From: Terriglobia bacterium
Lineage (GTDB): Bacteria; Acidobacteriota; Terriglobia; Versatilivoradales; Versatilivoraceae
NCBI GenBank assembly: GCA_046331665.1
Contig: JAXLQK010000019.1
Span: 20,692-84,691, forward strand
Direction: 5' to 3'
Length of the DNA stretch: 64,000 nucleotides
Shown: positions 3,649 through 30,938 of the stretch, piece after piece
Layout: each line of letters begins with the position of its first letter
How positions within the stretch are numbered: the first letter of the stretch is position 1
The notes under the pieces: model-generated
Seen by the model: the letters and a program-made list of their open reading frames with translations, nothing else
The model's database searches: none
What the model was told of the DNA's origin: nothing
Position numbers and translations under genes: made by a program

Positions 3649-4668
3649 ATGTCATTAAAGACTGGCAAGGTGTGGAGAGTTTGTGCAGGAATAGGGCTCC
3701 TCTTGTCGCTTCTGGCTTGTTCAAAAGCTCCGTCAGACGTCACTGTGAGTGATGCGATCAAAGGCCGCTTTTATTCAGACCCTCAACTCAAGAACGAAAA
3801 TATTCAAGTATCTGTCGCCAATGGGGAGGCGACGCTTTCGGGACAAGTGTCCGGCGATCCAGCCCATCAACAGGCTGTTAGCGTCGCCCAGGGGACGGAA
3901 GGAGTAAAAAAGGTGATTGACCAGCTCCAATTTCCCTCCTCTCCGGGTGGGATGCCACCGATGTCGTCCAATCAGCTTCAATCCGGCTCCTCACCGGGAG
4001 GAATGCCGCCGATGTCCTCGAATCAACAACAATCGATGCAATCCCCCCAATCCGGTGGTCCTGCGGCAGGGGGGAGTCCCGCCGCGGAAAACGTCCCCGG
4101 CAACAATCCCCCGGCACCAGAACCTCCGCCACCACCGCCACCTCGAAAATACACCATCCCATCGGGAACCAATGTTCGAATCCAGATGATTGATACGATC
4201 GATTCCAAGACCAGCAAGCCGGGAGATTCATTCCGGGCTTCGCTCGCCTCGCCCATTGTCTCGGGGAATGATGTGGTTGTCCGTCAAGGAGCGAATGTCG
4301 TGGTCAAGTTACTGGAATCCAAAACATCCGGCAAGTTCAAGGGACAGAGCGAGCTGGAAGTGACTCTCGATCAGATTGAGCTGAATGGGAAACGATACGA
4401 CGTGTCTTCTTCGTCAGTTCAGGAAGTGGGAAAATCCCGAGGAAAGGACACAGCCAAGAAAACCGGCCTGGGGGCGGCCATTGGAGCGGGGATTGGAGCG
4501 ATTGCTGGCGGCGGAAAAGGGGCCGCCATTGGGGCGGGAATTGGAGCTGGCGCTGGAGCCGGATCTCAGCTTTTTTTGAAAGGAAAGCAAGTCTCCATTC
4601 CCTCGGAAACCAAATTGGATTTCAAGCTGTCGGCTCCAGTGACCTTTACGCTTCCTCCGAAGAGTTAA
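3649..4668 (+). CDS. Lipoprotein with an N-terminal BON domain, a Pro/Gly-rich repeat linker and a C-terminal glycine-zipper domain
   Basis: There is a lipobox, LLSLLAC. The BON-like segment is VTVSDAIKGRFYSDPQLKNENIQVSVANGEATLSGQVS...GVKKVIDQL. SSPGGMPPMSSNQ occurs twice in tandem, followed by PPPPPPP. GAAIGAGIGA occurs twice 16 aa apart, forming a glycine zipper. Confidence 0.7.
   Translation: MSLKTGKVWRVCAGIGLLLSLLACSKAPSDVTVSDAIKGRFYSDPQLKNENIQVSVANGEATLSGQVSGDPAHQQAVSVAQGTEGVKKVIDQLQFPSSPGGMPPMSSNQLQSGSSPGGMPPMSSNQQQSMQSPQSGGPAAGGSPAAENVPGNNPPAPEPPPPPPPRKYTIPSGTNVRIQMIDTIDSKTSKPGDSFRASLASPIVSGNDVVVRQGANVVVKLLESKTSGKFKGQSELEVTLDQIELNGKRYDVSSSSVQEVGKSRGKDTAKKTGLGAAIGAGIGAIAGGGKGAAIGAGIGAGAGAGSQLFLKGKQVSIPSETKLDFKLSAPVTFTLPPKS
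3937..4026 (+). repeat. Imperfect in-frame tandem repeat (51-nt period) encoding SSPGGMPPMSSNQ twice
   Basis: 3937-3975 and 3988-4026 are near-identical copies at the DNA level. A second internal duplication, 4471-4500 versus 4519-4548, encodes the glycine-zipper unit. Confidence 0.8.
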
Positions 4669-4956
4669 CGTCCGACCGGATGGGTGTTTTGGACTTTGCG
4701 GAAAAATTTTCGTCCTGCCTTGAGGCTACTCCGGCGTGCCTTTATCATCATTCCCTGCCATCCCGGGCTGGCTGTCAACTGGCTTGAGTTGGGATGGAGA
4801 AAAACCTCTGCTCAATAAATTCTGCGACTGGTTTTGCGGGAGACGCATGGCCGCCAATATCTCTCCATAGCAGAGAAAGGCAGTGGAATTGGCCTTTGAA
4901 AGACCCTATAATAGGGGTCATCTCGGCGTAAGAAACTCGTTTCAACTAGTGCGACG

Positions 4957-7425
4957 ATGATCCGCAAGCCACCAAAGATCCTAAAGAGATTACTGTTATT
5001 CGGCAGCCTGCTCTTCTTGCCTCAGTCCCAAGGACCCTCTCTTCTCGGTCAGGGAGCGGCACCCCAAGCGAAGATTGAATTCAATCGGGATATCCGTCCA
5101 ATTCTATCTGACAACTGTTACACCTGCCACGGTCCCGACAAAGCCAACCGAAAGACCAGCCTTCGTCTGGATAACGAGGCGGGCATCTATGAGGATCTCG
5201 GAGGGTATCAAGCAGTTGTCCCGGGAAATCCGGATAAGAGCGAGTTATATCGCAGAGTTTCGTCTCAAGATGAGTCTCGACGCATGCCTCCTGTTTATTC
5301 GGGACGAACTCTGACAGCGAACCAGGTTGCCCTCATCCGTCAATGGATCGAACAAGGCGCTAAATGGCAAAAGCACTGGGTTTTTGTTCCTCCGGTTCGT
5401 CCCGAGCTTCCACAAGTCAATCAAAAGACATGGCCACGTAATGCGATTGATTATTTTGTCCTTGAACGATTGGAAAAGGAAGGGCTGACGCCATCCCCTG
5501 AGGCTCCGCCGGAAATCCTGATTCGTCGAGTGACACTCGATTTGACCGGCTTGCCCCCCTCCCCGCAGGAACTGGATGCTTATTTGTCGGACCATTCTCC
5601 CAATGCATACGAAAAGGTGGTTGACCGTTTGCTGCAGTCCTCGCGCTTCGGAGAACGAATGGCCATTCGTTGGCTCGAGGCTGCGCGTTACGCTGATACC
5701 AATGGCTATCAAACCGACGCAGAAAGGATCATGTGGCGCTGGAGAGATTGGGTAATTGACGCCTTTAACCGAAATATGCCATTCGACGAGTTCACGATTG
5801 AACAGATCGGCGGAGACTTGCTGCCGAATGCGACCACGGATCAGAAGCTGGCGACAGGTTTCAATCGGAATCATCGCGGGAATGGCGAAGGGGGAATCAT
5901 CCCCGAAGAATACGCAGTGGAATATGTTGCGGACCGTGTCGATACGGTCTCGACGGTGTGGCTCGGGTTAACTATGGGTTGCTCGCGTTGTCATGACCAC
6001 AAGTATGACCCCGTCACACAAAAAGAGTATTACCAGCTCTTCGCCTTCTTTAATAATGTCCCGGAGAAAGGCCATGCCAATAAATTCGGGAACTCACCGC
6101 CGGTCATCAAGACTCCAACGTCACAGCAGGAGGCGGAACTCTGGGACCTTGATCGGCGGCAGGTTGAGGCAGACAAGGTTTGGAAATCACTGCAACCCCA
6201 ATTGATTGCCGCGGAGCGAGGTTGGGAAAAGAACTTCAACCGATCGCGCCTGATCGACTGGTCCCTCACAGACGGCCTGGAAGCCTATTTCCCGTTGGAT
6301 GGAAACACCACGGATCGTTCCCGTAAAACCACCCCGGAGAAGACCGCTCAGCCTTCTTTCCGTGATGGTAATCCTGACTATGCGGCTGGACAAGTCGGGC
6401 TTTCCGGCTCCTTTGATGGGAAGCGCTTTGTCGATGCAGGGAACGTTGCTGATTTTGGATTCTATGACAAGTTTACAATGGCGGCTTGGATTTACCCACT
6501 TGACGAAAAGGGTGGCGCCATTCTGACGCGAACCAAAGACCTCAGCAAGGAGCAAGGCTACGGCCTCTATTGGGTGGATGGGAAACTCCAGGTAAACCTG
6601 GTTCAGCGTTGGCTGGATGATGCCCTGCGACTCGAAACTCAACAATCGTTTTCACCTGGACAGTGGTATCACGTGGCGGTTACCTATGACGCTTCCCGAA
6701 CAGCCGACTCCGTAAGGCTTTATGTCAACGGGAGCCCGGTTCAGTTGAAGGTCCTGCTCGATGATTTCTATCAAACATTCAAGATTGCTGAACCGTTTCG
6801 GATTGGAGGAGGGGGCGGCCCTGAAATCCGTTTCCATGGCTACATCGATGAAGTAAGAGTCTATAACCGGGTCCTGGCTCCGGACGAAATTCAACTCGTC
6901 TCTTGTAAAGATCGAATTAGCGAGATCGTTGCCATCCCCCCGGACCAGCGTACCGAAACGCAAAGCGCAAAACTAAGAGCCTACTTTGTCTCCACCGGTG
7001 CTGCCAAACCCATCCAGGAGGCTTACGCGAGGATCATCGCACTACAGCGAGAGCGCGAGAAACTCATCGACTCCATTCCGACGACTATGGTCATGCAGGA
7101 AATGAATCCTCCCCGGAATTCCTACATTTTGATTCGGGGTTCCTACGATCGTCATGGCGAGCGCGTTCAGCCTGCCGTCCCCGCCGTTTTCAACCCTCTT
7201 CCTGCAGGGCTCCCGGCCAATCGACTCGCTCTCGGGAAATGGCTTGTGGATCCCGCCAACCCCGTCACCGCTCGTGTAATCGTCAACCGGTTTTGGCAGA
7301 TGTATTTCGGAAATGGATTGGTCCGGACAGTCGAAAATTTTGGTTCCCAGGGGGAATGGCCGACCCACCCCGCGCTACTGGATTGGCTGGCGACCGAGTT
7401 TGTTCTAAATCGCTGGAACGTGTAA
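4957..7425 (+). CDS. PSCyt1 (c-type heme CxxCH) / DUF1549 (PSCyt2) / LamG-like lectin insertion / DUF1553 (PSD1) protein, N-terminal 822 aa, ending at a premature in-frame TAA
   Basis: A signal peptide is present. CYTCHGPDKANRK is the heme-binding motif, and the DUF1549 region follows. A concanavalin/LamG-like block (FDGKRFVDAGNVADFGFYDKFTMAAWIY...LYVNGSP...IDEVRVYNRVL) precedes DUF1553. The ORF stops at TAA 7423-7425, in the middle of the domain, relative to its paralogue at 14892-17594. Confidence 0.85.
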   Translation: MIRKPPKILKRLLLFGSLLFLPQSQGPSLLGQGAAPQAKIEFNRDIRPILSDNCYTCHGPDKANRKTSLRLDNEAGIYEDLGGYQAVVPGNPDKSELYRRVSSQDESRRMPPVYSGRTLTANQVALIRQWIEQGAKWQKHWVFVPPVRPELPQVNQKTWPRNAIDYFVLERLEKEGLTPSPEAPPEILIRRVTLDLTGLPPSPQELDAYLSDHSPNAYEKVVDRLLQSSRFGERMAIRWLEAARYADTNGYQTDAERIMWRWRDWVIDAFNRNMPFDEFTIEQIGGDLLPNATTDQKLATGFNRNHRGNGEGGIIPEEYAVEYVADRVDTVSTVWLGLTMGCSRCHDHKYDPVTQKEYYQLFAFFNNVPEKGHANKFGNSPPVIKTPTSQQEAELWDLDRRQVEADKVWKSLQPQLIAAERGWEKNFNRSRLIDWSLTDGLEAYFPLDGNTTDRSRKTTPEKTAQPSFRDGNPDYAAGQVGLSGSFDGKRFVDAGNVADFGFYDKFTMAAWIYPLDEKGGAILTRTKDLSKEQGYGLYWVDGKLQVNLVQRWLDDALRLETQQSFSPGQWYHVAVTYDASRTADSVRLYVNGSPVQLKVLLDDFYQTFKIAEPFRIGGGGGPEIRFHGYIDEVRVYNRVLAPDEIQLVSCKDRISEIVAIPPDQRTETQSAKLRAYFVSTGAAKPIQEAYARIIALQREREKLIDSIPTTMVMQEMNPPRNSYILIRGSYDRHGERVQPAVPAVFNPLPAGLPANRLALGKWLVDPANPVTARVIVNRFWQMYFGNGLVRTVENFGSQGEWPTHPALLDWLATEFVLNRWNV

Positions 7426-7443
7426 TCACTCCAGAAAGAGATC

Positions 7444-8157
7444 GTGATGAGTGCCACGTACCGTCAATCCTCAAAGATAACTCCGACCTCGATGCTGCGT
7501 GATCCGGAAAATCGGCTGTTGTCCAGAGGGCCGCGGCTGAGGCTTACGGCAGAAATGGTGCGCGACCAGGCCCTCGCGATCAGCGGGCTCCTCGTGGAAA
7601 AAATTGGCGGCCCCTCGGTAAAGCCTTATCAGCCTGAGGGTCTGTGGAAAGAGCTCAGCGGCGGGGACGACTATGAACCCGACAAAGGCGAAAACCTTTA
7701 TCGCCGAAGCCTCTACACCTATTGGAAACGGACAGCCGCCCCTCCCGCAATGATGACTTTTGATGCCCCCTCCCGCGAAACCTGCGCCGTCCGGCAGACG
7801 CGAACCAATACCCCTCTTCAAGCCCTGAACTTGATGAATGATGTGACTTATATGGAGGCGGCTCGGGCGCTGGCACAACGGACCATGAATGAAGCCGGCC
7901 AGACTCCTGAAGCCCGTCTGAAGCTGGCCTTTCGTCTGGCCACCTGTCGTTGGCCCACGACTGTGGAACTTCAAAAACTCCAGGATGGGTTCCAATTCCA
8001 ACTGGGTCAGTTTCGAGCCGATCCATCGGCCGCCTTGAAATTGGTTAGCGTTGGTGAATATCCGATCAATCAGAAGCTGGATATCGCAGAGCTGGCTGCT
8101 TATGCGACACAAGCCAGCCTCATCCTGAATCTGGATGAGACCATGAGTAAGGAATGA
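7444..8157 (+). CDS. C-terminal DUF1553 (PSD1) fragment, in frame with 4957-7425; the two are probably one gene separated by the TAA at 7423
   Basis: Same reading frame as the upstream ORF, since 7444-4957 is divisible by 3. The sequence across the stop, NRWNV*SLQKEIVMSATYRQSS, aligns with the paralogue's ENWNVKRMHKLIVMSATYRQSS. An AAGAGA-like RBS lies 6 nt upstream of ATG 7444. Confidence 0.6.
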   Translation: MMSATYRQSSKITPTSMLRDPENRLLSRGPRLRLTAEMVRDQALAISGLLVEKIGGPSVKPYQPEGLWKELSGGDDYEPDKGENLYRRSLYTYWKRTAAPPAMMTFDAPSRETCAVRQTRTNTPLQALNLMNDVTYMEAARALAQRTMNEAGQTPEARLKLAFRLATCRWPTTVELQKLQDGFQFQLGQFRADPSAALKLVSVGEYPINQKLDIAELAAYATQASLILNLDETMSKE

Positions 8158-8160
8158 ATC

Positions 8161-9627
8161 ATGAACCCTATTCGTGAACGAGAACTTCATCTGAACCGTC
8201 GTCATCTTCTGAGCTTCGCAGGCCGTGGGATCGGATTGGCCGCCTTGATGTCACTGCTCAATGAGGATATTCCCTCCGCTTTGGCTGGAGAGCTGCCCAA
8301 TTCCACCGCTACTTCCAGCGAGTTCCCCAACTTCGCTCCCAAAGCCAAACGCGTCATTTATCTCTTTCAATCCGGGGCTCCCTCGCAGCTTGAACTGTTT
8401 GATTACAAGCCCAAAATTGCAGAGCTTCGGGGCACGGAGCTGCCGGATTCCATCCGAAAAGGTCAGCGCCTGACTGCCATGACGTCAGCCCAATCGAGTT
8501 TTCCGGTGGTCCCCTCGCTTTTCAAGTTTGCCCAGCATGGACAGTCCGGGACATGGGTGAGTGAACTCATGCCTCACACGGCAAAAATCGTGGATGAGCT
8601 ATGCTTCATCAAGTCCATGCACACGGAGGCGATTAATCACGACCCGGCTATAACCTTTTTTCAAACCGGCGCTCAGTTGGCAGGGAGGCCCAGTATCGGT
8701 GCCTGGTTAACCTACGGGCTCGGGAGCGAAAACAAAGATCTGCCTGCGTTCGTGGTCATGATCTCTCAAGGCTCCGGAAATCCCGCGGATCAACCGCTTT
8801 ACGATCGCCTGTGGGGAAGCGGCTTTCTTCCTCCCCAATATCAGGGAGTGAAATTTCGTTCCGGAAGCGATCCGGTCCTTTACCTTTCGAATCCGCCGGG
8901 CATGTCAGATCCTTCACGCCGGCGTTTTCTCGATGACCTGGCCCAACTGAATCAGCTGAGCCTAAATGAATTTGGCGATCCGGAAATCTCCACTCGAATC
9001 TCCCAGTATGAGATGGCTTACCGGATGCAAACGTCCGTGCCTGAGTTGACAGACCTCTCGGGAGAACCCGCCCAGGTGTTTGAGCTTTATGGTCCAGAAT
9101 CGAAGAAGCCTGGAACGTATGCCGCCAATTGCCTATTGGCAAGGCGCCTCGCGGAAAGAGGGGTGAGGTTCATCCAGCTCTATCATCGGGGTTGGGACCA
9201 ACACTTTACCCTGCCAAAACAGATCGTGGGACAATCCCGGGACACGGACCAGGCTTCAGCAGCCCTGATCCTGGACCTCAAACAACGTGGGCTGTTGGAT
9301 GACACACTGGTGGTTTGGGGCGGGGAGTTTGGAAGAACCATCTATTGTCAGGGGAAATTAACCGCTGATGATTACGGCAGGGATCATCACCCCCGGTGCT
9401 TTACAGTTTGGCTGGCCGGCGGAGGGATCAAGTCCGGGATTACCTTTGGGTCCACCGATGATTACTGTTACAACATCACGGAGAATCCGGTTCACGTCCA
9501 TGATCTCCATGCCACGATGCTCCATTGCTTGGGAATTGACCATACTCGACTCACCTACAAGTACCAGGGACGCTACTTCCGATTGACCGACATTAGCGGC
9601 GAAGTGGTGAGCAAAGTGTTGACTTAA
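8161..9627 (+). CDS. DUF1501 protein (sulfatase/alkaline-phosphatase fold) with a Tat signal
   Basis: [20 protein letters not shown] is a Tat motif. Conserved DUF1501 blocks are present ([10 protein letters not shown]..., [27 protein letters not shown]). The start lies 3 nt after the stop of the upstream PSCyt gene, so the two are translationally coupled. Confidence 0.85.
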
Positions 9628-9662: not shown

Positions 9663-10517
9663 TCATCCCTTTCCGTAGAGCTGGCGATAGCGTTCGAAGT
9701 ATTGGCGAACCTGCTCCATGATTTGCTGGTATTCCGGATCACTCCGCAGTTTCTCAAAATTCTTGTCCCGCTGGAACCAGGGGTAATTATGGTTCCCCAA
9801 TTCCATACTTCGGCGCAACCAAGACAAGGCTTGGCTTCTATCACCCAGCAGGGAATAGACTGAAGTGATCCAATAGGCCAAATCTCCATCAATGACATCT
9901 TCCCGGTTGGGGCTTAATACCTTGGGGTCTATTTTCTGTCGATTGCCTTGAGAGGCATACAAGAATCCAAGGAAATACAGCGGTGCATCGTCCCCCTTCG
10001 GACCGCTAAGTTCTTTGGCTTTGAGGAGTATTGGTTCTGCTTCGGCAAGTTTCCCCTGGTAATAGAGAAACTCGCCAAGATAAGCCATGGCTTTGTATTG
10101 GTCGGGAGAATTGGCTAATATGCGCCGCATTTCCTCCTCTGCCTCTTTGACCTTTCCCAGGTAAAGCAGCATGCGGGCATGCATCCAGTGGACTCGATGG
10201 GACGTTGGATTGAGTTCCATACTGCGTAGGTATTCTCTCTCAGCCAGATCGATTAAACCGGTATAGTGATAAGCATAACCCAGCATATCGTGCGCCCAGT
10301 CGGAATTTGGGGCCATACCATTCCCCTTCTTGAGCTTTTCAATGGCCTCCACATTACGGCCAAGTTGAATATAGATTCCGCCCATTGATATGTAGACGTC
10401 TGCAAGACGCGGATTCAATTGCATGGCTTTTTGAGCCATTCGCTCCGCATACGCCAAGTTTCCCCGAGCGTTATCAATAAAGTTCGCGGCCTCCATCATG
10501 CAAACATCCGCCAGCAA
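9663..10517 (-). CDS. TPR-repeat protein; probably the displaced C-terminal TPR domain of the upstream Ser/Thr kinase
   Basis: At least six TPR-like repeats. The ORF-track start is a TTG with no RBS. The same frame stays open upstream to 10559 ([16 protein letters not shown]...), overlapping the kinase stop. Confidence 0.6.
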   Translation of the reverse strand: MLADVCMMEAANFIDNARGNLAYAERMAQKAMQLNPRLADVYISMGGIYIQLGRNVEAIEKLKKGNGMAPNSDWAHDMLGYAYHYTGLIDLAEREYLRSMELNPTSHRVHWMHARMLLYLGKVKEAEEEMRRILANSPDQYKAMAYLGEFLYYQGKLAEAEPILLKAKELSGPKGDDAPLYFLGFLYASQGNRQKIDPKVLSPNREDVIDGDLAYWITSVYSLLGDRSQALSWLRRSMELGNHNYPWFQRDKNFEKLRSDPEYQQIMEQVRQYFERYRQLYGKG

Positions 10518-10543: not shown

Positions 10544-12148
10544 CTAATTTGATGGCTTCTCAAGAAGGGTCTGCCCTCGCTGGAGGCTTTCCAGGCGAGA
10601 ACGCATGGCGTACTCATTCCAATAAAATCGGGCTTGGATATAGAGATTATAGGCATCCGGAGAATGTGTCATCGGAGCCGTCATACAAGCTTGCTCGTCT
10701 TCCGTCACTGATACACTCAATCCTTCGACCACCTTCTGGGCTACTTGATCTTGGAACATCAGCATATCTTTGGCCCGCAAATCATACCGTTGGGCCCAAC
10801 GGGTTGACCGACTCTTAGGGTCACTGAGAAGAACCGACACCCGCATGACATCGCCAACGCGCTGAAAGGTTCCTTCCAGAACGGACTCTACATCAAGCTC
10901 CTGGGCGACCTGGGCCGGATCGGCTGGCGCCTGCACATATTTCAACACCGAGCTCGTAGGCCGGACTGCCAGGTTCTGCAAGGTGGCCATCCGGCTGATG
11001 ATGGCATCGGACATCCCAATCCCCCACGCCTGGTTCTCTTCTTTCCCAGCAAGATCCCGGAACGGGAGCACCGCTACTGTTCGCACCGCGGACTTTGCAA
11101 TGGCCGGCGGAGAATTGGGAACGGGATTGCCCTGCCTTGACTCGAAAAACCATGCCGCGACACTGAGGATCAGAATGGCAAGGGAAGCGACCACTGCCCA
11201 AATTCGGAAACGAGATCCTTTCGACCTTTTGTTTGGTCCTGTAGAGTTTGAAGCCGCCCTCAAGCGGGTGGACTCTAGATCACGTTTCAGGCGTCTCAGG
11301 TCCCCCCTTAAGTCGGACGCGGACTGGTAGCGCAGCTCACGATCCTTCTCGAGGGCTTTGAAGATGATTCGCTCCAACTCGGCCGGTAATTCTGGATTAA
11401 TGGTTCTTGGCGATACGGAGGCGCGGTTAAGGATAGAGTCAAAGAGGATGGCGGGGGTATTCCCATTAAAAGGTGGACCACCCGTAGCCATCTCATAAAG
11501 CACAGCCCCAAACGAAAAAAGATCGGAACGTCCATCCAATTCTTCTCCCCGAGCTTGCTCAGGAGACATATAGGCGATGGTGCCGATGGTTGATCCCGGG
11601 CTGGTTAATTGCGGATCGCGCATCGACACCGTCAAGAGGTCTGTAGGTGCCGCAGTTTTCGCGTCTTTTTCTTTGGAGGTCGCTAATTTTGCCAATCCAA
11701 AATCCAAAAGTTTGACTTGAGCCCGTTGCGTCACAAAAATATTGGCGGGCTTGATATCCCGATGAACAATTCCCTTGCTGTGGGCCGCCTCGAGCGCGTC
11801 GATGATTTGAATCGCCAAATCTAATAACGGCTCGATCTTGAGGGGGTTGCCGTCAATGAAAGAGCGGAGGGTCATGCCCTCCATCAATTCCATGACAATA
11901 AAGGGTTGGCCTTCGGACTCGTCAACCTCATGAATGGTACAGATGTTGGGATGGTTCAATGCCGAAGCGGCTCTCGCCTCACGTTGGAATCGTTCCAGCG
12001 CCTGCTTGTCTTGGGCGAGGTCCCCGGGTAGAAACTTCAACGCCACTTGCCGGTTAAGTTTGAGGTCCTCAGCCAGATACACAACCCCCATTCCACCACC
12101 GCCAAGTTTTTCAACGATCTGATAATGGGTAACAGTTCTGCCGATCAT
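10544..12148 (-). CDS. Hanks-type Ser/Thr protein kinase with a TM helix and an extracytoplasmic TolB_N-like domain
   Basis: Kinase motifs are present: [13 protein letters not shown]...[26 protein letters not shown] segment, [19 protein letters not shown], follows. [30 protein letters not shown] matches the TolB_N-like domain, which in related kinases precedes TPRs. The gene ends PSN* in a different frame from the TPR ORF that follows. Confidence 0.85.
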
Positions 12149-13380: not shown

Positions 13381-14826
13381 TCAGGCCAAAAGTTTGGGAA
13401 CGACATTGCCTGCGACATCGGTCAGCCGGAAATCACGCCCTTGATGGTGATAGGTCAGCTTCTCATGATCAAAACCCAAACATTGCAGGATCGTGGCATG
13501 CAAGTCGTGCACATGGATGCGGTCTTCCACGACGTTGAGGCACAGGTCATCGGTTTTGCCAATCACTTGCCCCCCTTTAATGCCTCCCCCTGCCATCCAG
13601 ATACTAAAGGCAAAGGGGTGGTGATCACGTCCTTCACTTCCTTTCTTGGGGTTCCGGCTCTCAACTAACGGAGTTCTCCCGAATTCCCCGGCCCAAATCA
13701 CCAGGGTTGAATCGAGCAATCCACGCTGCTTCAAATCCTTGAGTAAGGCGGCTACGGGCTGGTCGGTAATATCGCAATTCTTCTTCAAATGACTGACCAA
13801 TTCTGCGTGGTCATCCCAGCTCGCATGCATGATCTGGACAAAACGAACTCCCCGTTCCACCATCCTGCGAGCCAGCAGGCAATTCGAGGCAAAGGGTTTT
13901 GTGGGTTCCTTGTCGACCCCGTACATCTCGAGGGTCTTGGGAGACTCCTTGGAGAAATCAAGGAGTTCCGGGGCCGCTGCCTGCATCCGGAATGCAAGTT
14001 CGTAAGACGCAATTCGGGAGGCGATTTCAAAATCCCCGCTTTCCATGTAATTGGCCTCATTTAAATCTCGAATCACGTCGAGAGTTGACCGCTGGAGCTG
14101 ACGATTCAGGCCTTGAGGATTGGAAAGATAAAGCACGGGATCACCGCTGTTGCGGAAGGTAACGCCCTGGTAGGTAGAGGGCAGAAATCCGCTGGACCAA
14201 TTGGCACTTCCGGCACTGGTGCCGACTCCCGAGCTCAGGACCACAAATCCCGGTAGATTTTGAGATTCACTCCCCAAGCCATAAGTCACCCAGGCTCCCA
14301 TGGAGGGGCGCCCCACCAGTGGTGAGCCGCAATTGAGCATTAACTGCCCCGGATGATGGTTGAATTGCTCCGTATACATGGAGCGGATCATGCAGATATC
14401 ATCGGCACAGGTCGCGAGATGTGGAAGGTAGTCGGAAATTTCGATGCCGCTCTGCCCGTAAGGCTTAAACTCTCTCGGACTGGCCCAAACCCGGGCATTT
14501 GGCTTAATGAAAGCCAGTTTTAAATTCTTGGTCATCGATTCCGGGAGCGGGTGGCCGTCCCACTTTCGCATTTCTGGCTTCGGATCGAAAAGATCCAGCT
14601 GGCTGGGGGCTCCTTCCATGAAGAAAAAGATGACATTCTTGGCCTTGGGGGCAAATTGAGGAGGTTTCGGCTGCATGGGATTGACGCTCGGCAAAGTGCC
14701 CGCCAGGGCAGTCGTGAGCCCCTCACTCGCCAACAATTGCCATAAGCCAATGGCCCCAACACCCCCGACGCATTCCGCGAGAAACTTACGACGGGAATGA
14801 ATTTTCTGGAATTCCTGGAAATTCAT
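13381..14826 (-). CDS. DUF1501 protein (sulfatase-like fold) with a Tat signal; paralogue of 8161-9627
   Basis: SRRKFLAECVGGVGAIGL is a Tat motif. The same conserved blocks occur (VIWAGEFGRT, DHHPFAFSIWMAGGGIKGG). GGGAGG lies 5 nt upstream of the ATG. Confidence 0.85.
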   Translation of the reverse strand: MNFQEFQKIHSRRKFLAECVGGVGAIGLWQLLASEGLTTALAGTLPSVNPMQPKPPQFAPKAKNVIFFFMEGAPSQLDLFDPKPEMRKWDGHPLPESMTKNLKLAFIKPNARVWASPREFKPYGQSGIEISDYLPHLATCADDICMIRSMYTEQFNHHPGQLMLNCGSPLVGRPSMGAWVTYGLGSESQNLPGFVVLSSGVGTSAGSANWSSGFLPSTYQGVTFRNSGDPVLYLSNPQGLNRQLQRSTLDVIRDLNEANYMESGDFEIASRIASYELAFRMQAAAPELLDFSKESPKTLEMYGVDKEPTKPFASNCLLARRMVERGVRFVQIMHASWDDHAELVSHLKKNCDITDQPVAALLKDLKQRGLLDSTLVIWAGEFGRTPLVESRNPKKGSEGRDHHPFAFSIWMAGGGIKGGQVIGKTDDLCLNVVEDRIHVHDLHATILQCLGFDHEKLTYHHQGRDFRLTDVAGNVVPKLLA

Positions 14827-14891
14827 CGATCCTCCCCTGTAAGCGCTTGTCTTCCTATGAACATCGCCCCACGTTTGAGCTCCTGAACTTT

Positions 14892-17594
14892 TTAACCTCG
14901 TGTGATGAACTCATCCAGGTTAAGCAGAGCCCTAGAAATGCTAACCCAGATTGCGGCCTCGGTTGCATCGACCCCTTCAACTCCATGTGCCGCATAGAGA
15001 CTCTCTGCCACATCCGGGTTCTCCTTCAAAAAGGCTTTCTGGTCATCATAATAGCGAACCAACCTCTCCCGCTCCGCAGGTTTGGGGGGCCGGGCAAGAC
15101 AGAGTCGGAATGCATAGTCAATCCGCTCGTTCAAGCTGCCCGGTTTTTCACGCAAGACCCGGGTTGCCAGACCCTGAGCCGCTTCAAAGAAGACAGGGTC
15201 GTTCAGAAGATTGAGCGCTTGCAAGGGAGTTGTGGAACGCTCCCGGCGACTGCAAACGAGTAACGAGTTCGGAGCATCGAAATTCATCAATTCGGGGTAT
15301 GGCGTCGTTCGCTGGAAAAAGACATAGAGTCCTCGTCGATACCGGGCCGTCCCTTCACTTTCTTTCCACTTGACGCTCATCGCATAGCCCAGGTCGGTCA
15401 CCCCCTTCGGAATGACAGGGCGGACGCTTTTTCCTCCGATGGTCGGGTCCAGCAGTCCGCTCGTCGCCAGCGCATTATCCCGAATCAATTCCGCCGGCAA
15501 ACGCAAACGCGATTGCCGGGCGATCCACTTGTTATAGGGATCCCGTGCTTCCAGCTCTTTTCTCGTTTTGGAAGATTGGCGGTAAGTCGCTGACATCACA
15601 ATCAGCTTATGCATGCGCTTGACGTTCCAATTCTCCCTGACAAATTCGGCCGCCAACCAATCGAGCAATTCTGGATGCGTCGGGCGCTCCCCTTTGATTC
15701 CAAAATCCTCCGAGGTTTCCACAATCCCATGGCCGAAAAATTCCTGCCACATCCGGTTCATCGTGACCCGGGGCGTTAAGGGATTTTCAGAGGAGACTAG
15801 CCAGCGGGCAAACCGAAGACGGGCAGGTTCATTTGTGACAGGAAAGGGCGGCAAGACCGCCGGCGTGCCAGGAGAAACTTCAATCCCCGGTTGCAAGTAA
15901 TCCCCTCTGATCAAGACGTGGGTCTTGGGGGGATTTGGATTTTCGGTAATCGTGGGCGCTTCTGTCAGACTCGGGTACTGTTCGGAAAGCTGGTCAAGTT
16001 TTTCACCAAGCTCCTTGAACTTGAGCTCATCGTAACGATCTTTCCCCTCGGCAATGGAATAATATCGGACAATGTGGTCGGTAAGCCTGTCTTGCTCCTT
16101 CTGCGTTCGTTCGGTTGGATTCTTCAAAAGAATCTCTTGACCGTGATCCAACATTTTGCCGACAGTGTCCCAAGACACATCGTATGGAACGTTGATGCCG
16201 GGATGAGTGGAGGCCTCCAGGGTCTTCTTCTCCCAGTCACCCTGAATTTCGGCAACCTTATATTCCTCCAGCAAGGCCTTCCGTTTCTTGTCGTACTCGG
16301 GTTTGCCCTGAAGATAGCCCCCTATTTCTCCAGGAGACGGAGCTTCAACATTAACTTCACGCGCTGTATTAAAAAAGGCGAGGAGCTGATAGAACTCCCG
16401 CTGGCTGATGGGATCGTATTTGTGATCGTGACAACGAGCACAGCCGATAGTTAACCCCATCCAGGTGGTCCCTGTCGTGATCGTACGGTCGAGCACTTGT
16501 TCGACGCGAAATTCCTCGTTATCGACCCCGCCCTCCCGGTTCGTCAGAGTGTTGCGATTGAAACCCGTGGCGATTTTTTGATTAAGCGTTGCGCGCGGCA
16601 ACTGATCCCCGGCAATCTGTTCGATGGTAAACTCGTCGAAGGGTAAATTGCGATTGAGCGCTTCGATCACCCACTGCCGGTATCTCCATGCGTAGGGCCG
16701 AACATTGTCCTTCTCATACCCATCACTATCCGCATAGCGAGCCAGATCGAGCCAATGGCGGGCCCACTTTTCGCCGTAGTGGGGGGAATCGAGAAGGCGA
16801 TTCACGAGCCTTTCATAGGCATCGGGGGAATCATCCGCAACAAAGTTCGACACTTCCTCGGGAGTCGGAGGCAGACCCGTAAGATCAAAGCTTAATCGCC
16901 GAATCAAGGTGATCCGATCGGCTTCAGGAGAAGGCTGGACCTGCTCCGATTCCAGCTTACTTAAAATAAAGGCATCGATTGGATTTCTTATCCAGGCTGA
17001 GTTACCGACACGAGGCAAGGGAGGCTGCTTGAGGGGCTGAAAAGCCCAATGCGACCTTCGAGGATCTTCACTGGCCCTTGCGATGGGCTTTGCCCCATCC
17101 TCCGACCAGTCGACACCTTGATCAATCCATGCCCTCAGCAATCCAACCTGTTCGGCCGTCAAGCGATCTCCGGCCGGGGGCATGACCTTCCCCTCGTCCG
17201 CTCCTGCCACCAAGCGAATCAGTTTGCTCCCTGCACTGTCCGCCGGCTTGATCACGGCACCAGAGTTTCCGCCATCCAGTGCATGTTGACGACTGTCAAG
17301 CCGGAGGCCGCTCATTTGCATCTGAGGCCCGTGACAGGACAGGCAGCGACTGCTCAAAATCGGTTGGACGTCGCGCTTGAAATCTATTTTCTGAGTGGCT
17401 GCCGGAGGCAAGTCCGGTTTCGCAGCTAGCTGTGTCTGAGCCTTGTAGCCCCCGACACATAGCAGGAGCAATGGCAAAACTGTCAGGTTGCAGCGTAGGC
17501 CTCGGATACTCAGGGCAGATCGAAATCCATCCATCTCGTTATTTGTTTTCTCCCAATCTAGCGGCGCCCGTTTCTTCTGCTTTTGGACTGCCAT
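14892..17594 (-). CDS. PSCyt1 (CxxCH heme) / DUF1549 / DUF1553 protein, intact 900-aa paralogue
   Basis: RCLSCHGPQMQMSGLRLD is the heme-binding region. The DUF1549 and DUF1553 blocks are collinear with 4957-8157 but lack the LamG insertion. A signal-like N-terminus is present. Confidence 0.85.
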   Translation of the reverse strand: MAVQKQKKRAPLDWEKTNNEMDGFRSALSIRGLRCNLTVLPLLLLCVGGYKAQTQLAAKPDLPPAATQKIDFKRDVQPILSSRCLSCHGPQMQMSGLRLDSRQHALDGGNSGAVIKPADSAGSKLIRLVAGADEGKVMPPAGDRLTAEQVGLLRAWIDQGVDWSEDGAKPIARASEDPRRSHWAFQPLKQPPLPRVGNSAWIRNPIDAFILSKLESEQVQPSPEADRITLIRRLSFDLTGLPPTPEEVSNFVADDSPDAYERLVNRLLDSPHYGEKWARHWLDLARYADSDGYEKDNVRPYAWRYRQWVIEALNRNLPFDEFTIEQIAGDQLPRATLNQKIATGFNRNTLTNREGGVDNEEFRVEQVLDRTITTGTTWMGLTIGCARCHDHKYDPISQREFYQLLAFFNTAREVNVEAPSPGEIGGYLQGKPEYDKKRKALLEEYKVAEIQGDWEKKTLEASTHPGINVPYDVSWDTVGKMLDHGQEILLKNPTERTQKEQDRLTDHIVRYYSIAEGKDRYDELKFKELGEKLDQLSEQYPSLTEAPTITENPNPPKTHVLIRGDYLQPGIEVSPGTPAVLPPFPVTNEPARLRFARWLVSSENPLTPRVTMNRMWQEFFGHGIVETSEDFGIKGERPTHPELLDWLAAEFVRENWNVKRMHKLIVMSATYRQSSKTRKELEARDPYNKWIARQSRLRLPAELIRDNALATSGLLDPTIGGKSVRPVIPKGVTDLGYAMSVKWKESEGTARYRRGLYVFFQRTTPYPELMNFDAPNSLLVCSRRERSTTPLQALNLLNDPVFFEAAQGLATRVLREKPGSLNERIDYAFRLCLARPPKPAERERLVRYYDDQKAFLKENPDVAESLYAAHGVEGVDATEAAIWVSISRALLNLDEFITRG

Positions 17595-17995: not shown

Positions 17996-18742
17996 TCAGT
18001 ATTGGTATTGTGCTTGTTTAACTTTGAGTCGGAAGTCAAAACCTTCGATACGAATCACTTTGCACATCTCGTACAGCCGGGAGCGCAAACGTGTCCCGAT
18101 ACGGTCTTCGAGACTTTCTTCCTTTGACAATACGGTCCCATTGGAAAGCGTTTTGGGTTCCCTTAGTTGGTCGTCAAAGTTTGTGGTGATGATGGTTGTT
18201 AAGCGCCGATTATATCTGGAATTAATGATATAAGAGACCGTCTCCCGAACCCATTCGGTAGGTCGTTCAGCCCCCAGGTCATCTAGCACCAGCAGATCAC
18301 TGTTTAAGACGGGCTCAAGAATTTCCAGCTCGGAGGACTGAGAAACAGGGTTATAGGAATTCTGAATCCGTTTGAGCAACTCACGAAAATCACAGAACAA
18401 ACCCCGAGCCCCCACCTTCTGAATGATTTCCCGCAAAATCGACACAGCCAAGTGGGTCTTGCCCACACCGCAAGGCCCCAGAATCAACAGGCCACAATCC
18501 ACCAGAGGATATTCTTCTACAAACTTCAGCGCGGCCGCCTTAACCAGTTTAAGGCGTTCCGTGATCGGATTAAAGTTTTCGAATGAACAATGCTCATAGC
18601 GTGCGGGGAGATGAGCAAGTTCAATCAATCTCTCTAATTTTCGTTGCTGCACACAGGCACAAGGAACGACCCCCTGCGGTTCGGCATCTTCGAGATACCG
18701 CCAACCGGTCCCTCCACAGATTTGACATTCTGCAGTTAGCAT
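17996..18742 (-). CDS. DnaC/IstB-like AAA+ ATPase (putative helicase-loader-type protein) with an N-terminal four-Cys motif
   Basis: Walker A LILGPCGVGKTHLAVSI and Walker B LLVLDDLG are present. The N-terminus carries CQICGGTGW...VPCACV, which is zinc-ribbon-like. It starts 9 nt downstream of hspR. Confidence 0.65.
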   Translation of the reverse strand: MLTAECQICGGTGWRYLEDAEPQGVVPCACVQQRKLERLIELAHLPARYEHCSFENFNPITERLKLVKAAALKFVEEYPLVDCGLLILGPCGVGKTHLAVSILREIIQKVGARGLFCDFRELLKRIQNSYNPVSQSSELEILEPVLNSDLLVLDDLGAERPTEWVRETVSYIINSRYNRRLTTIITTNFDDQLREPKTLSNGTVLSKEESLEDRIGTRLRSRLYEMCKVIRIEGFDFRLKVKQAQYQY

Positions 18743-26154: not shown

Positions 26155-26586
26155 TCATTTCCGTTTTTCCCTAAATAGCTCACGAAGGACTTCCCCAGTT
26201 CCTTGGGTCAGATCCAGACTGTCGAGAGAGTCGATGTCAAAGTACGCCGCCTCAGCAGCATCCGAAGCTGGACGGGGGGTACCTGATTGGATTTCGCAAA
26301 GGTAGTCGATAATGACATAGTGAAAGGAGATCTTCCCGCGGGAATCCCGAAAGATGCGCTCCAAAACCTTGCCCACCCGGATGGGGCAAATTTGGATTTG
26401 CAATTCCTCCCTGAGCTCCCGTTTAACAGCCTCTTCCAGCGTTTCACCCAAGTCAACGGCACCACCTGGAATCGACCATTTCCCTTGAGCAGGCGGCTTA
26501 CCGCGTTTTACGAGCAGCACTTGATTTCCTTTGAATATGATTCCTCCCACCGCACAAACGGGAGCACGTGGATAGACTCGACTCAT
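26155..26586 (-). CDS. NUDIX hydrolase
   Basis: Nudix box GGAVDLGETLEEAVKRELREELQI. Confidence 0.85.
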   Translation of the reverse strand: MSRVYPRAPVCAVGGIIFKGNQVLLVKRGKPPAQGKWSIPGGAVDLGETLEEAVKRELREELQIQICPIRVGKVLERIFRDSRGKISFHYVIIDYLCEIQSGTPRPASDAAEAAYFDIDSLDSLDLTQGTGEVLRELFREKRK

Positions 26587-26756
26587 CGTTCCCTCGATTC
26601 GTATCAGCTTCGTTCCTCTGGTTCGGATCCATGAACCCCTCGACTCTGATGATCCTCATCTTTTTTTGTGACAAAAGATTTTTCTATCTTCGCATGTTTG
26701 CCGTTCAGTTCGCTTATAATTTCCGGAAGGAGAATTCTCAACTTGAGGGAGTGCGG

Positions 26757-27431
26757 ATGGGGAAATCATATCGACGGTCAGGCTTGACGAAGAAGCAGTT
26801 TCAACTCTTCTCTTTCGTTCAGTCCTTTCTCGAGGAGGAAGGATATTGCCCGAGTATCGAAGAAATTGGAAAAAGCCTCGGACTCTCCTCGACGGCCACC
26901 GTTCATAAACATCTCAGTAACCTGGAAGCCAAAGGGTATCTCCGTCGTGAACGAAATCGGAGCCGATCGATTGAGATCCTGCAGGCTCTGCCCAGCCCTC
27001 CGACCAGGGACCTCCCAGGAAGGCGGGAACTCACCCCCGATGGCCGGCAGATGTTGTCCCTCCCCCTGAAGGGCCGAATTGCCGCTGGAAAGCCGTTAGA
27101 GGCTGTCTCCGGCGATGAAACCCTCTCCCTAAGTGAGTTCTCCGAAAATGAAAGGGTTTATGTGTTGCAGGTGAAAGGCAACTCCATGGTCGATGATCAT
27201 ATTTGTAATGGCGACTATGTGGTTGTTGAAAGAGTTTCGACAGCCAATCCGGGTGATACGGTGGTGGCACTGTTAGGTAACCATGAGGCCACTCTCAAGA
27301 AATATTTTCGTGAGAAAGGCAGTCTTGTTCGGCTGCAGCCAGCCAATACGTCGATGCAGCCGCTTTTCGTTCCGGAGCAAGAGGTGAAAATACAGGGGCG
27401 TGTCATCGCGGTCTTACGAAAGTATCAGTGA
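26757..27431 (+). CDS. lexA: LexA repressor (S24 peptidase)
   Basis: Winged HTH (FQLFSFVQSFLEEEGYCPSIEEIGKSLGLSSTATVHKHL). The cleavage and catalytic region is VKGNSM...GDTVVALLGNHEATLKKY. The ORF-track start at 26568 is an out-of-context extension. ATG 26757 has GAGGGA 6 nt upstream. Confidence 0.85.
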   Translation: MGKSYRRSGLTKKQFQLFSFVQSFLEEEGYCPSIEEIGKSLGLSSTATVHKHLSNLEAKGYLRRERNRSRSIEILQALPSPPTRDLPGRRELTPDGRQMLSLPLKGRIAAGKPLEAVSGDETLSLSEFSENERVYVLQVKGNSMVDDHICNGDYVVVERVSTANPGDTVVALLGNHEATLKKYFREKGSLVRLQPANTSMQPLFVPEQEVKIQGRVIAVLRKYQ

Positions 27432-27454
27432 CGAGACGGAAGAGAGGCTTTAGG

Positions 27455-28630
27455 ATGGAGGAAGGAATCCGCAAAGTCATTTTTCATGTGGATATGGATG
27501 CGTTTTTTGTTTCCGTTGAAGAGCTCTTTGACCCTGGCTTAAAAGGAAAAGCGGTCATTGTCGGTGGGAAGCCGGATCAGAGAGGGGTGGTTTCTGCCGC
27601 CTCCTATGAAGCCCGGAAATTTGGGATTCATTCCGCCATGCCTTTAGTGACTGCGAAGCGACTCTGTCCTCACGCAATTTTTCTCCCGGGGCGGCATAAG
27701 ACATACGCGCAATATTCGGAGTGGATCCGTCACCTCCTGGAATCTTACAGCCCGATTGTGGAAATGGTCTCCATTGATGAGGCCTACTTGGACCTCACCG
27801 GATTCCAGCGCACTTACGGTCATCCCCAAGCCTTGGCCGAACGTTTGCGAAATCATTTGCTGGGTGAGACCGGGCTCAGCGCCTCGGTGGGGATATCGGC
27901 AAGCAAACTTGTCTCGAAAGTGGCTTCGGATTTGGCTAAACCCAAGGGAGTCCTTTACGTTCTTCCGGGTCATGAGGCAGCCTTCCTGGGGTCCCTGGGT
28001 GTCGGGAAATTACCGGGAGTAGGAAAGGTGACTCAGCAAAGACTCCGCGAACTGGGGATCTCACGGGTTGGGCAACTGGCGGAAATGGGGACAAACTCCC
28101 TTCGAGAGTTATTTGGAAGGTGGGGAGAGTCTCTCTATCAGAAATCCCAAGGAATGGATACGGCCCATTTCGAGTTTCGTAATGAACCCCAGTCGATCGG
28201 CCACGAACACACCTTTGACCGGGACACAGGAGATTCCGAGGAGATCCAGAAAACGATCGCCATCTTAGTCGACAAATGCTGCCATCGTTTGCGGAAACAT
28301 CGAATGTTTGCCAAAACGGTGAGGTTAAAAATACGTGATCAGAAATTCTATACCCAAGTAAAAGCCCTAACCTTGCAGGAATCGACACAGCTGGATGTAG
28401 AAATCCTGCATGGCGCCTTGACGCTTCTCGAACGGCATTGGAAGCAGGGCACCAAACTTCGCTTGGTGGGGGTTTCCTTGTCAGGACTCGATTTCAATGC
28501 AGGTCAAGAAGCGCTTTTTTCCCAAGACCGTCGAGACAAGATGCTGCGGCTCCATCAGGCAGCCGATCGGGTGCGAAAGCGCTACGGGTTCGAAGCAATC
28601 CACTCCGCCCGAACATCGAAAGAACGGTAA
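27455..28630 (+). CDS. dinB: DNA polymerase IV (Y-family, DinB)
   Basis: IFHVDMDAFFVSVE...SIDEAYLDLT is the Y-family palm. The little-finger domain is present. ATG 27455 has a GAGAGG RBS and lies 23 nt after the lexA stop. Confidence 0.85.
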   Translation: MEEGIRKVIFHVDMDAFFVSVEELFDPGLKGKAVIVGGKPDQRGVVSAASYEARKFGIHSAMPLVTAKRLCPHAIFLPGRHKTYAQYSEWIRHLLESYSPIVEMVSIDEAYLDLTGFQRTYGHPQALAERLRNHLLGETGLSASVGISASKLVSKVASDLAKPKGVLYVLPGHEAAFLGSLGVGKLPGVGKVTQQRLRELGISRVGQLAEMGTNSLRELFGRWGESLYQKSQGMDTAHFEFRNEPQSIGHEHTFDRDTGDSEEIQKTIAILVDKCCHRLRKHRMFAKTVRLKIRDQKFYTQVKALTLQESTQLDVEILHGALTLLERHWKQGTKLRLVGVSLSGLDFNAGQEALFSQDRRDKMLRLHQAADRVRKRYGFEAIHSARTSKER

Positions 28631-28631
28631 G

Positions 28632-30017
28632 ATGAAAAGAACCGCCATTGAAATCGTCAGGAAGCTCCGTCAGGCAGGTTTCCAGGCCTACTGGGTAGGC
28701 GGGTGCGTTCGCGATTTGGTGATGGGCCACTCCCCCACCGACTACGATATTGCCACGAGCGCAACCCCCGAGGAGCTATTTCATTTGTTCCCGCGAGGAC
28801 TGGCCGTGGGAGCCCAATTCGGGGTGGTCATCATCCCCGAAGAAGGGAATCTCTATGAAGTTGCCACGTTTCGCTCCGAAGAGAAATACACCGACGGACG
28901 ACACCCCGATCGTGTGCGGTATACGCTTGATCCGCGCGAGGACGTGCAGCGAAGGGATTTCACCATCAACGGTCTCCTTTATGATCCCTTGGAGGAAGAG
29001 GTCATTGACTATGTCGGGGGGCAGTCAGACATCCACTCGCGCATCATTCGAACCATTGGAGATCCTTGGCGCCGGTTTGAAGAAGACCGGCTCCGCTTGA
29101 TTCGGGCCGTGCGTTTCGCTGCTCGTTTTGACTACCAAATTGAGACCAATACCTGGCAGGCCCTGTCTGAACTTGCCCCGAATATCGAGCAAGTTAGCCC
29201 GGAAAGAATTCGTGATGAACTGATCAAGATTTTGACTCAGGGCTATGCGGCACGAGGCATGACTCTCTTGGACTCTTGCGGTCTACTGCGCATCATCCTC
29301 CCGGAAATAACCCATTTGCATGGAGTGGAGCAGCCACCGGAATTTCACCCCGAGGGCGATGTTTGGATCCATACGATCCTGATGCTCGGATTGATGGATC
29401 AGCGGACTCTTGAAGGAAGAAGGGAGCCCAGCTCGGACTCTCTGGAGGAATCGGGACCGAACCCGCCCTCTTCTTTGAGTTCTTATCCGTCCCCCACTTT
29501 GGCCCTGGGCGTATTGCTCCATGACATTGGTAAGCCGGAAACGTTTGAGCGCTCGGATCGCATTCGCTTTAACAACCATCCCGAAGTAGGCTCCCGCATG
29601 GCCGTGGGGATCTGCGAACGCCTCCGCTTTCCCACCAGGCAGGTCGCAAGGATCTCTGAACTCGTTCGGGATCATCTCAGATTCAAAGATGTCCCCCAGA
29701 TGAAACTGTCAACCCTGAAACGCTTCTTACGAAGGGACGGGTTTGCCGAACATCTGGAATTGCATCGCTTGGACTGCCTGTCCAGCCATCGCAATCTGGC
29801 AACCTGGCAGTTCCTTACAGAAAAAATGAACGAGATGGGACCCGAGGAAACCCGGCCCAAACCTCTTCTTTCTGGTAATGATCTGATACGGCTTGGATTC
29901 CTCCCGGGGCCTAGGTTCAAGGAGATTCTTAAATCGGTTGAGGACGCCCAGTTGGATAATGTGGTGAGCTCCGAGGAAGAAGCGACAAAATTTGTCCTCG
30001 AGCACTTTTCTAGGTAG
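28632..30017 (+). CDS. cca: CCA-adding tRNA nucleotidyltransferase (Pol-beta NTase head plus HD domain)
   Basis: GGCVRDLVMG...DYDIAT head motif and an HD domain (HDIGKP...). ATG 28632 is 1 nt after the dinB TAA. The ORF-track N-terminal extension from 28497 overlaps dinB and is rejected. Confidence 0.8.
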   Translation: MKRTAIEIVRKLRQAGFQAYWVGGCVRDLVMGHSPTDYDIATSATPEELFHLFPRGLAVGAQFGVVIIPEEGNLYEVATFRSEEKYTDGRHPDRVRYTLDPREDVQRRDFTINGLLYDPLEEEVIDYVGGQSDIHSRIIRTIGDPWRRFEEDRLRLIRAVRFAARFDYQIETNTWQALSELAPNIEQVSPERIRDELIKILTQGYAARGMTLLDSCGLLRIILPEITHLHGVEQPPEFHPEGDVWIHTILMLGLMDQRTLEGRREPSSDSLEESGPNPPSSLSSYPSPTLALGVLLHDIGKPETFERSDRIRFNNHPEVGSRMAVGICERLRFPTRQVARISELVRDHLRFKDVPQMKLSTLKRFLRRDGFAEHLELHRLDCLSSHRNLATWQFLTEKMNEMGPEETRPKPLLSGNDLIRLGFLPGPRFKEILKSVEDAQLDNVVSSEEEATKFVLEHFSR

Positions 30018-30029
30018 GCCAATAGAACA

Positions 30030-30938
30030 ATGCCGGAACTGCCTGAAGTCGAAACCATCCGTCGCGGTCTGGAAAAGAAGGCTCTTCAGAAGACCATTGA
30101 ACGGGTTGAAGTCCGCTGTCGCAAGATTATTCTTCGTCCCCAGGCAAGCCAGCTGGCCGTAGAGCTGGCGGGGCAGACCATCGAGGAAATTCGTCGTCGC
30201 GGAAAATTCCTGGTCCTTGGGACCCGGGACTTCATCTTGCTCATTCATCTCGGAATGACGGGACAGCTCACCTATTGGGATAAGACTGAAAAAGATGCTG
30301 AAGCGTTTTCCATCAATCCTTTGACGGGACTGCAACAGGCTCATCAGCACGCGATCGATAAGCATACCCATATCATCATCTATTTCACGGACGGAAATGC
30401 CCTGCATTACCGGGACGTTCGCCAGTTTGGAAAATGGCGTCTTTATGCAAAGGAGGAATTCGGTGAGGCTCAAGAGTTCTGGCGGCTTGGACTTGAGCCC
30501 TTTTCCCCCGAATATACGTGGAAGGGTTTCGAAGCCCGCTTTGGAAAACGCAACCTCCGAATCAAATCCCTGCTGCTGGACCAGGGGTTTGTGGCAGGGG
30601 TAGGGAATATCTATGCCGACGAGGCCTTATTTGAAGCGAGGGTACACCCAGAGCGGCGCGTCAGTGGTCTTTCTCAAGATGAGAAATTGAAACTCTTTAA
30701 GGCAATTCCCAAAGTGCTCCGGAGAGGGATCCACTTCGGGGGAACCACTTTTCAAAGCTATTTGAATGCGGAGGGAAAAGCGGGAGGCTTTCAGGAGTAT
30801 CTGAATGTCTACGGCCGGGAGCGTCAGCATTGCCGTCGATGCGAGTCGCAAATTCAGCGGCTGGTCATCAGTCAGCGCTCCAGTCATTTTTGCCCAAACT
30901 GCCAGCCTCGAAGAAGATCACGCACCTTGCGAAAGTGA
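30030..30938 (+). CDS. mutM: Formamidopyrimidine-DNA glycosylase
   Basis: The N-terminus is MPELPEVE. An H2TH domain and a C-terminal CxxC...CxxC zinc finger are present. Confidence 0.9.
   Translation: MPELPEVETIRRGLEKKALQKTIERVEVRCRKIILRPQASQLAVELAGQTIEEIRRRGKFLVLGTRDFILLIHLGMTGQLTYWDKTEKDAEAFSINPLTGLQQAHQHAIDKHTHIIIYFTDGNALHYRDVRQFGKWRLYAKEEFGEAQEFWRLGLEPFSPEYTWKGFEARFGKRNLRIKSLLLDQGFVAGVGNIYADEALFEARVHPERRVSGLSQDEKLKLFKAIPKVLRRGIHFGGTTFQSYLNAEGKAGGFQEYLNVYGRERQHCRRCESQIQRLVISQRSSHFCPNCQPRRRSRTLRK

Follow-up and report, generated by a model that had tools for sequence, protein, structure and literature searches.

A single in-frame TAA interrupts a PSCyt1/PSCyt2/Laminin_G_3/PSD1 gene beside its DUF1501 partner in a Terriglobia metagenome-assembled genome

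The PSCyt1/PSCyt2/PSD1 protein architecture, with an optional Laminin_G_3 (LamG) domain and a DUF1501 partner, has been reported for bacteria of the Planctomycetes-Verrucomicrobia-Chlamydiae (PVC) group (PMC3542564), and the same architecture was noted in metagenome-assembled genomes (MAGs) of Verrucomicrobia (PMC5615132). A locus sharing the four domains, their order and the adjoining DUF1501 gene was found in a stretch of 64,000 nucleotides (nt) of contig JAXLQK010000019.1 (126,069 bp), here called the window, which comes from an NCBI MAG of a soil-type Terriglobia bacterium. Compared with the known modules, the copy in the window belongs to a member of the Acidobacteriota and contains an internal TAA codon, whereas the members with which it was compared are single chains. 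Neither the gene family nor its pairing with DUF1501 is new, and the lesion in the window gene is an ordinary one. The locus is one PSCyt1/DUF1549/LamG/DUF1553 gene with a one-base lesion, and not a pair of genes, an evolved split or a case of recoding. With a probability of roughly one half, the TAA is a real and very recent nonsense mutation; the gene would then be a pseudogene in progress, giving a truncated product of 822 amino acids (aa) with possible polarity on the DUF1501 gene.

The original prediction described two open reading frames (ORFs) lying in one frame and split by a TAA, and this was confirmed by translation (Table 1). The stop is in frame with ATG 4957, and the whole region translates as 1066 codons with codon 823 as the sole internal stop. 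Apart from the TAA, the read-through holds no other stops or indels. The plus strand around the site reads CGC TGG AAC GTG TAA TCA CTC CAG AAA GAG ATC GTG ATG AGT, and position 7423 lies outside any homopolymer.

Pfam matches in ORF1 were PSCyt1 at aa 54-112 (58.0 bits), PSCyt2/DUF1549 at aa 164-369 (291.5 bits) and Laminin_G_3 at aa 493-646 (90.2 bits), followed at its end, aa 755-822, by positions 1-68 of the 244 in the PSD1/DUF1553 profile (109.8 bits, E 1.8e-31). The start of ORF2 takes up this profile at positions 76-241 of 244 (197.9 bits, E 2.3e-58), and the 7 profile positions missing between the ORFs match in number the 7 codons that run from the stop up to GTG 7444. All four domains (PF07635, PF07583, PF13385 and PF07587) exceed the gathering score and stand in the canonical order. 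The read-through fragment gave a single PSD1 match over profile positions 1-241 of 244 with an E of 1.5e-101, and because this match is continuous the stop lies inside the domain; the two ORFs do not adjoin by chance. DUF1553 does run across the stop, as had been proposed; the contrary case, a domain that naturally begins after 7444, does not agree with the profile positions 1-68 found before the stop. Where the window gene departs from its family is in the single uninterrupted polypeptide, which is broken at codon 823. In an AlphaFold2 model of an orthologue (P0001; mean predicted local distance difference test score, pLDDT, of 76.6, with residues 881-960 modelled poorly), residue 823 opens a helix spanning residues 822-830 with a pLDDT of 94. 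Searches of the PDB by sequence and by fold matched the LamG domain alone and gave no functional lead for PSD1.

Table 1. Position of the interrupted gene, its parts and its partner in the window.
Feature	Position	Strand	Remarks
Whole interrupted gene, 1066 codons including the internal TAA	4957-8157	+	Orthologue of 1066-aa PSCyt1/PSCyt2/Laminin_G_3/PSD1 proteins
ORF1, 822 aa	4957-7425	+	N-terminal signal-like segment, PSCyt1, PSCyt2/DUF1549, Laminin_G_3, PSD1 profile positions 1-68
CYTCH (CxxCH) haem c attachment motif, residues 54-58	5116-5130	+	C54, C57 and H58 invariant in 56 homologues
PSD1/DUF1553 domain read through the stop, aa 755-1009	7219-7983	+	One Pfam match, 339 bits
TAA, codon 823, followed by T (TAAT context)	7423-7425	+	Lys column in homologues
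Six codons SLQKEI, from the stop to the first possible restart codon	7426-7443	+	Conserved helix of homologues still alignable
ORF2, 237 aa from GTG 7444 or 236 aa from ATG 7447	7444-8157	+	PSD1 profile positions 76-241 and C-terminal tail
DUF1501 partner, intact, 488 aa, MFN8006458	8161-9627	+	Start 3 nt past the ORF2 stop

The 120 best matches from a search over 5.8 billion proteins were compared with the gene. Every one of them is a single chain, 987-1095 aa long, with the full set of four domains, and the closest, at 75-76% identity, are exactly 1066 aa long. The stop column is occupied by Lys in 119 and by Gln in the remaining one. In addition, 80 loci were taken from species-representative genomes, 77 of which span the stop site; at this column the loci encode Lys (71), Arg (2), His (2), Asn (1) or Gln (1), so that a sense codon was present in all 77 and a stop in none. 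Lys is encoded by AAG in 37 loci and by AAA in 34, and because AAA is in use at this position, AAA to TAA is the simplest path to the observed codon. The earlier placing of the stop at a conserved Lys, one substitution away from AAA, is well borne out by these counts.

The best locus, L024 (CAWBAT010000005.1, a contig of 1.76 Mb), has an ORF of 1066 aa that aligns to the read-through with 75.8% identity and zero gaps, and its codon 823 is AAG. Synteny between both loci extends over the MR_MLE, BON, PSCyt/PSD1 and DUF1501 genes, with aa identities of 87%, 68%, 76% and 83% respectively. The record of L024 is labelled 'uncultured Acidimicrobiia bacterium' despite a synteny of four to five genes at 68-87% aa identity with the Terriglobia MAG, and either this label or the Terriglobia one is probably mistaken. 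The DUF1501 partner in the window covers its Pfam profile completely (positions 1-390 of 390, E 1.1e-157) and has an N-terminal NRRHLLS twin-arginine-like motif.

An 'intact paralogue' in the window had served as the first comparator for the stop. The string quoted from it, ENWNVKRMHKLIVMSATYRQSS, is indeed contained in ORF 14892-17594, but this protein is distant, with 39-50% identity to the broken gene and no Laminin_G_3 domain, and L024 is the better comparator. Gene conversion from the paralogue was rejected: the two copies are only 61% identical in local DNA and do not share the lineage-unique codons. The paralogue is part of an intact module of PSCyt1/PSCyt2/PSD1 (900 aa, without LamG) and DUF1501 (481 aa) at 13381-17594 on the minus strand. 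This second module is located 5 kb from the broken gene, and its DUF1501 protein bears a SRRKFL twin-arginine motif.

TAA is a true terminator in the source organism, with no reassignment: of the 40 long ORFs of the window, 14 end in TAA, among them the two genes upstream and the DUF1501 gene. The UAA might instead be read through or recoded in a programmed way, which would fit the kept frame and give a perfect family member of full length. This reading is nevertheless hardly credible, as many ordinary genes stop at TAA, and TAAT stands at the end of three of the 41 listed ORFs, namely two ordinary genes besides the premature stop of ORF1. No tRNA genes and no Rfam families or recoding elements were detected within the 64-kb window, and no homologue has a stop at the site. 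Bacteria are not known to have a UAA-specific recoding system.

The third reading in the original prediction was a split gene that re-initiates. In its maintained form, translation would end at the TAA and restart 18-21 nt further on, at GTG 7444 or ATG 7447, to deliver two chains that act jointly. A start codon does occur soon after the stop, ORF2 is conserved perfectly, and bacteria are known to restart translation after nonsense codons. The restart fragments of lacI and T4 rIIB are reportedly translational restarts of this type, and the window gene is like them in having an in-frame GTG/ATG 18-21 nt past the stop. It is unlike them in that its Shine-Dalgarno (SD) sequence is no better than background and in that the restarted product would be parted from an exported N-terminal part. 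The codon described as ATG 7444 is a GTG, with the ATG one codon later at 7447, and the AAGAGA-like SD sequence assigned to it proved unremarkable. Pairing of the 17 nt upstream with the anti-SD sequence amounted to −1.7 kcal/mol for GTG 7444 and −2.9 kcal/mol for ATG 7447, against a median of −2.95 kcal/mol for 268 internal in-frame ATG/GTG codons of the window and a mean of −6.4 kcal/mol for 13 true starts, those matching NCBI proteins. Neither codon has a ribosome-binding context above background, and the Met of ATG 7447 is merely the conserved M/T of the family in IV(M/T)SATYRQSS. Promoter, terminator and composition scans of 7425-8161 revealed nothing specific, and no promoter-like site was present on the plus strand of this region.

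The comparison with homologues also speaks against a maintained split, with a break at this position in none of the 120 proteins and none of the 77 loci, and so does its location in the first turn of the confidently modelled helix 822-830, inside one Pfam domain. A further difficulty is the cellular location of the two chains. Haem c is attached on the periplasmic side of the membrane. ORF1 opens with MIRKPPKILKRLLLFGSLLFL, which upon inspection is signal-like, with basic residues followed by LLLFGSLLFL; given this N-terminus and the invariant CxxCH motif, the N-terminal part is taken to be exported. ORF2 opens with MSATYRQSSKITPTS and is, again by inspection, without a hydrophobic or signal-like segment, and a restarted fragment should stay in the cytoplasm. 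We consider a maintained split unlikely.

One feature near the stop could be read in its favour. Residues L817, R819 (Gly in 114 homologues), S824 and E828 each occur in at most one of the 120 homologues, and all four fall within 12 residues (codons 817-828, positions 7405-7440), the densest cluster of unique residues in the conserved columns of the protein. It resembles local relaxation at a long-standing break. Clusters of equal size are however present in 41 of the 120 intact homologues, so its size is not significant, and it is mildly notable only for coinciding with the stop. The cluster could be due to chance, to clustered mutation or error, or to local relaxation at an older break. A compensated pair of frameshifts was rejected as the source of the odd residues, with W820, N821, V822 and L825-K827 in register and a gap-free alignment to L024. 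A special form of the maintained split has re-initiated ORF2 binding the Tat-signal-bearing DUF1501 protein in the cytoplasm, where it could for example be co-exported by 'hitchhiking'. This form is very improbable. If it were true, the cluster would represent local adaptation or relaxation after the split, and the locus would be a natural experiment in which PSD1 assembles from two chains and contacts DUF1501.

The age of the lesion was assessed from the conservation on both sides of it. Before the stop, 75.7% of the residues are identical to L024, and after it 76.5%. Of columns at least 95% conserved, ORF1 breaks 7 out of 255 (homologue mean 4.5, with at least 7 broken in 30 of the 120 homologues) and ORF2 none out of 84 (homologue mean 1.5). 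The distance of the C-terminal part to 54 outgroup homologues is 0.326, compared to 0.264-0.330 for five intact close orthologues. ORF2 has therefore spent no measurable time evolving as non-coding DNA. Since the downstream piece is undecayed, the lesion is very young or not real; neither relaxed constraint nor secondary lesions were found after the stop, a result that only a very recent event would explain. The gene is like an ordinary pseudogene with a single nonsense codon (the 'internal stop' class of the NCBI Prokaryotic Genome Annotation Pipeline, PGAP) in having one stop and a full-length colinear orthologue, and unlike it in being without visible secondary decay.

If the lesion is not real, the gene of the organism would be intact, with 1066 aa and Lys (AAA) at 823, and the T at 7423 would be an assembly, base-call or consensus error or a minority variant. 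Apart from the TAA the gene has no flaw: it is as long as its orthologue, carries no indels, keeps all 84 conserved columns past the stop and shows normal relative rates. Its source, moreover, is a MAG. As about 4% of the substitutions in the gene make stops, a single stop would fit a modest rate of substitution errors. That rate cannot be high, however, since the 64 kb contain about 40 other genes that are intact, and the absence of a homopolymer at 7423 also argues against an artefact. Real pseudogenes with a single nonsense codon are common in bacterial genomes, and within the family itself one of the 77 loci, a PSCyt/PSD1 homologue of a Rhodothermales MAG (L026, OZ244626.1), has an in-frame stop at about position 4733, aligned to residue 282 of the query. 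This independent break at another site shows that sporadic disruption occurs in the family. An artefact is a serious possibility, at rather longer than even odds. A recent nonsense mutation and a base-call error thus both stay live from the original prediction, while the re-initiating split is weakened.

A second lesion bears on this choice. On the minus strand, a Ser/Thr kinase ORF (10544-12148, MFN8006460) and a TPR ORF (9663-10499, MFN8006459) are matched in L024 by a single contiguous ORF. The kinase ends in CTT CTT GAG AAG CCA TCA AAT TAG, where the next frame reads GAA GCC ATC AAA TTA GAC, and the 20 aa ahead of the annotated TPR start remain conserved in the shifted frame. Once repaired, the 828-aa kinase-TPR fusion can be aligned with L024 in one frame, with 79% identity over residues 246-828. 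Relative to L024, the kinase-TPR gene is broken by a deletion of 1 nt at about 10557-10561. Like the TAA, from which it is separated by 3.1 kb, this frameshift is undecayed, and NCBI/PGAP lists both halves as two proteins and not as a pseudogene. Two fresh single-base lesions at this distance raise the weight of an artefact without proving it.

The sequence of the window is not generally poor, judging from the full-length Pfam coverage of about 40 other genes and from the continuity of accessions: between MFN8006456 and MFN8006500, the gaps in accession numbers match, by our count, the number of long ORFs between anchors. The BON gene (3649-4665) and the DUF1501 gene are MFN8006457 and MFN8006458, consecutive across the broken gene and leaving no room for a protein from it. 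An exact-sequence look-up found no protein record for ORF1 or for ORF2 with either start. The public annotation evidently gives 4957-8157 no protein and probably treats it as a pseudogene, and the earlier view that the annotation of the locus has to change is probably moot.

An antisense ORF on the minus strand (7471-8205, 244 aa) overlaps fully with ORF2 and is slightly longer. This ORF and the ORFs in other frames across the stop were rejected as genes, having no Pfam match, and are regarded as shadow ORFs. A longest-ORF caller, used naively, would choose the antisense ORF over ORF2.

Under the preferred reading, a recent nonsense mutation, a single base change would have turned the codon of the conserved Lys-823, most simply AAA, into TAA inside PSD1/DUF1553, and this change would be real and evolutionarily very recent in the population represented by the MAG. 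Translation would halt at 7425, giving an exported protein of 822 aa in which the C-terminal tail and about three quarters of PSD1 are missing. A fragment restarted at either GTG 7444 or ATG 7447 would have no signal and stay in the cytoplasm, apart from the periplasmic N-terminal part, and the function of the gene would be lost. Without a restart, the 735 nt from the stop to the start of DUF1501 would be untranslated, and polarity may lower the expression of the partner.

Several points weigh against this reading. The total absence of decay is equally predicted by an assembly or consensus error, and two fresh inactivating lesions so close together somewhat exceed what is expected for a free-living bacterium. 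In the searched collections, relatives reach at most 76% identity. A 28-mer around the stop, with N in place of the T, had 0 exact-pattern matches among metagenome contigs, which provided no independent assembly. The reality of the base is itself something that we infer, as are the fates of the products and the polarity, and the latter two count among the points against.

Two other features of the window were recorded. A DNA-damage cluster spans 26155-30938, in which the LexA gene (26568-27431) overlaps by 4 nt with a DinB/pol IV-type IMS gene (27428-28630). Further along come a gene of the CCA-adding/poly(A) polymerase family and Fpg (30030-30938); the opposite strand holds a NUDIX gene. An IstB/DnaC-like ATPase ORF (17996-18742, minus strand) is situated between a PilZ gene and MerR-DnaJ-DnaK heat-shock genes, and no IstA-type transposase gene was seen near it.

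For the organism, loss of one copy would be tolerable, because the second intact PSCyt/PSD1 and DUF1501 pair provides redundancy within the family. The lesion itself sheds no light on the biology of the PSCyt/PSD1-DUF1501 module, and its significance beyond annotation is small. The locus is to be read as one interrupted gene, either a pseudogene or a sequence to correct, rather than as two proteins or as the longer antisense ORF, and its practical value is that of a quality flag for the MAG.

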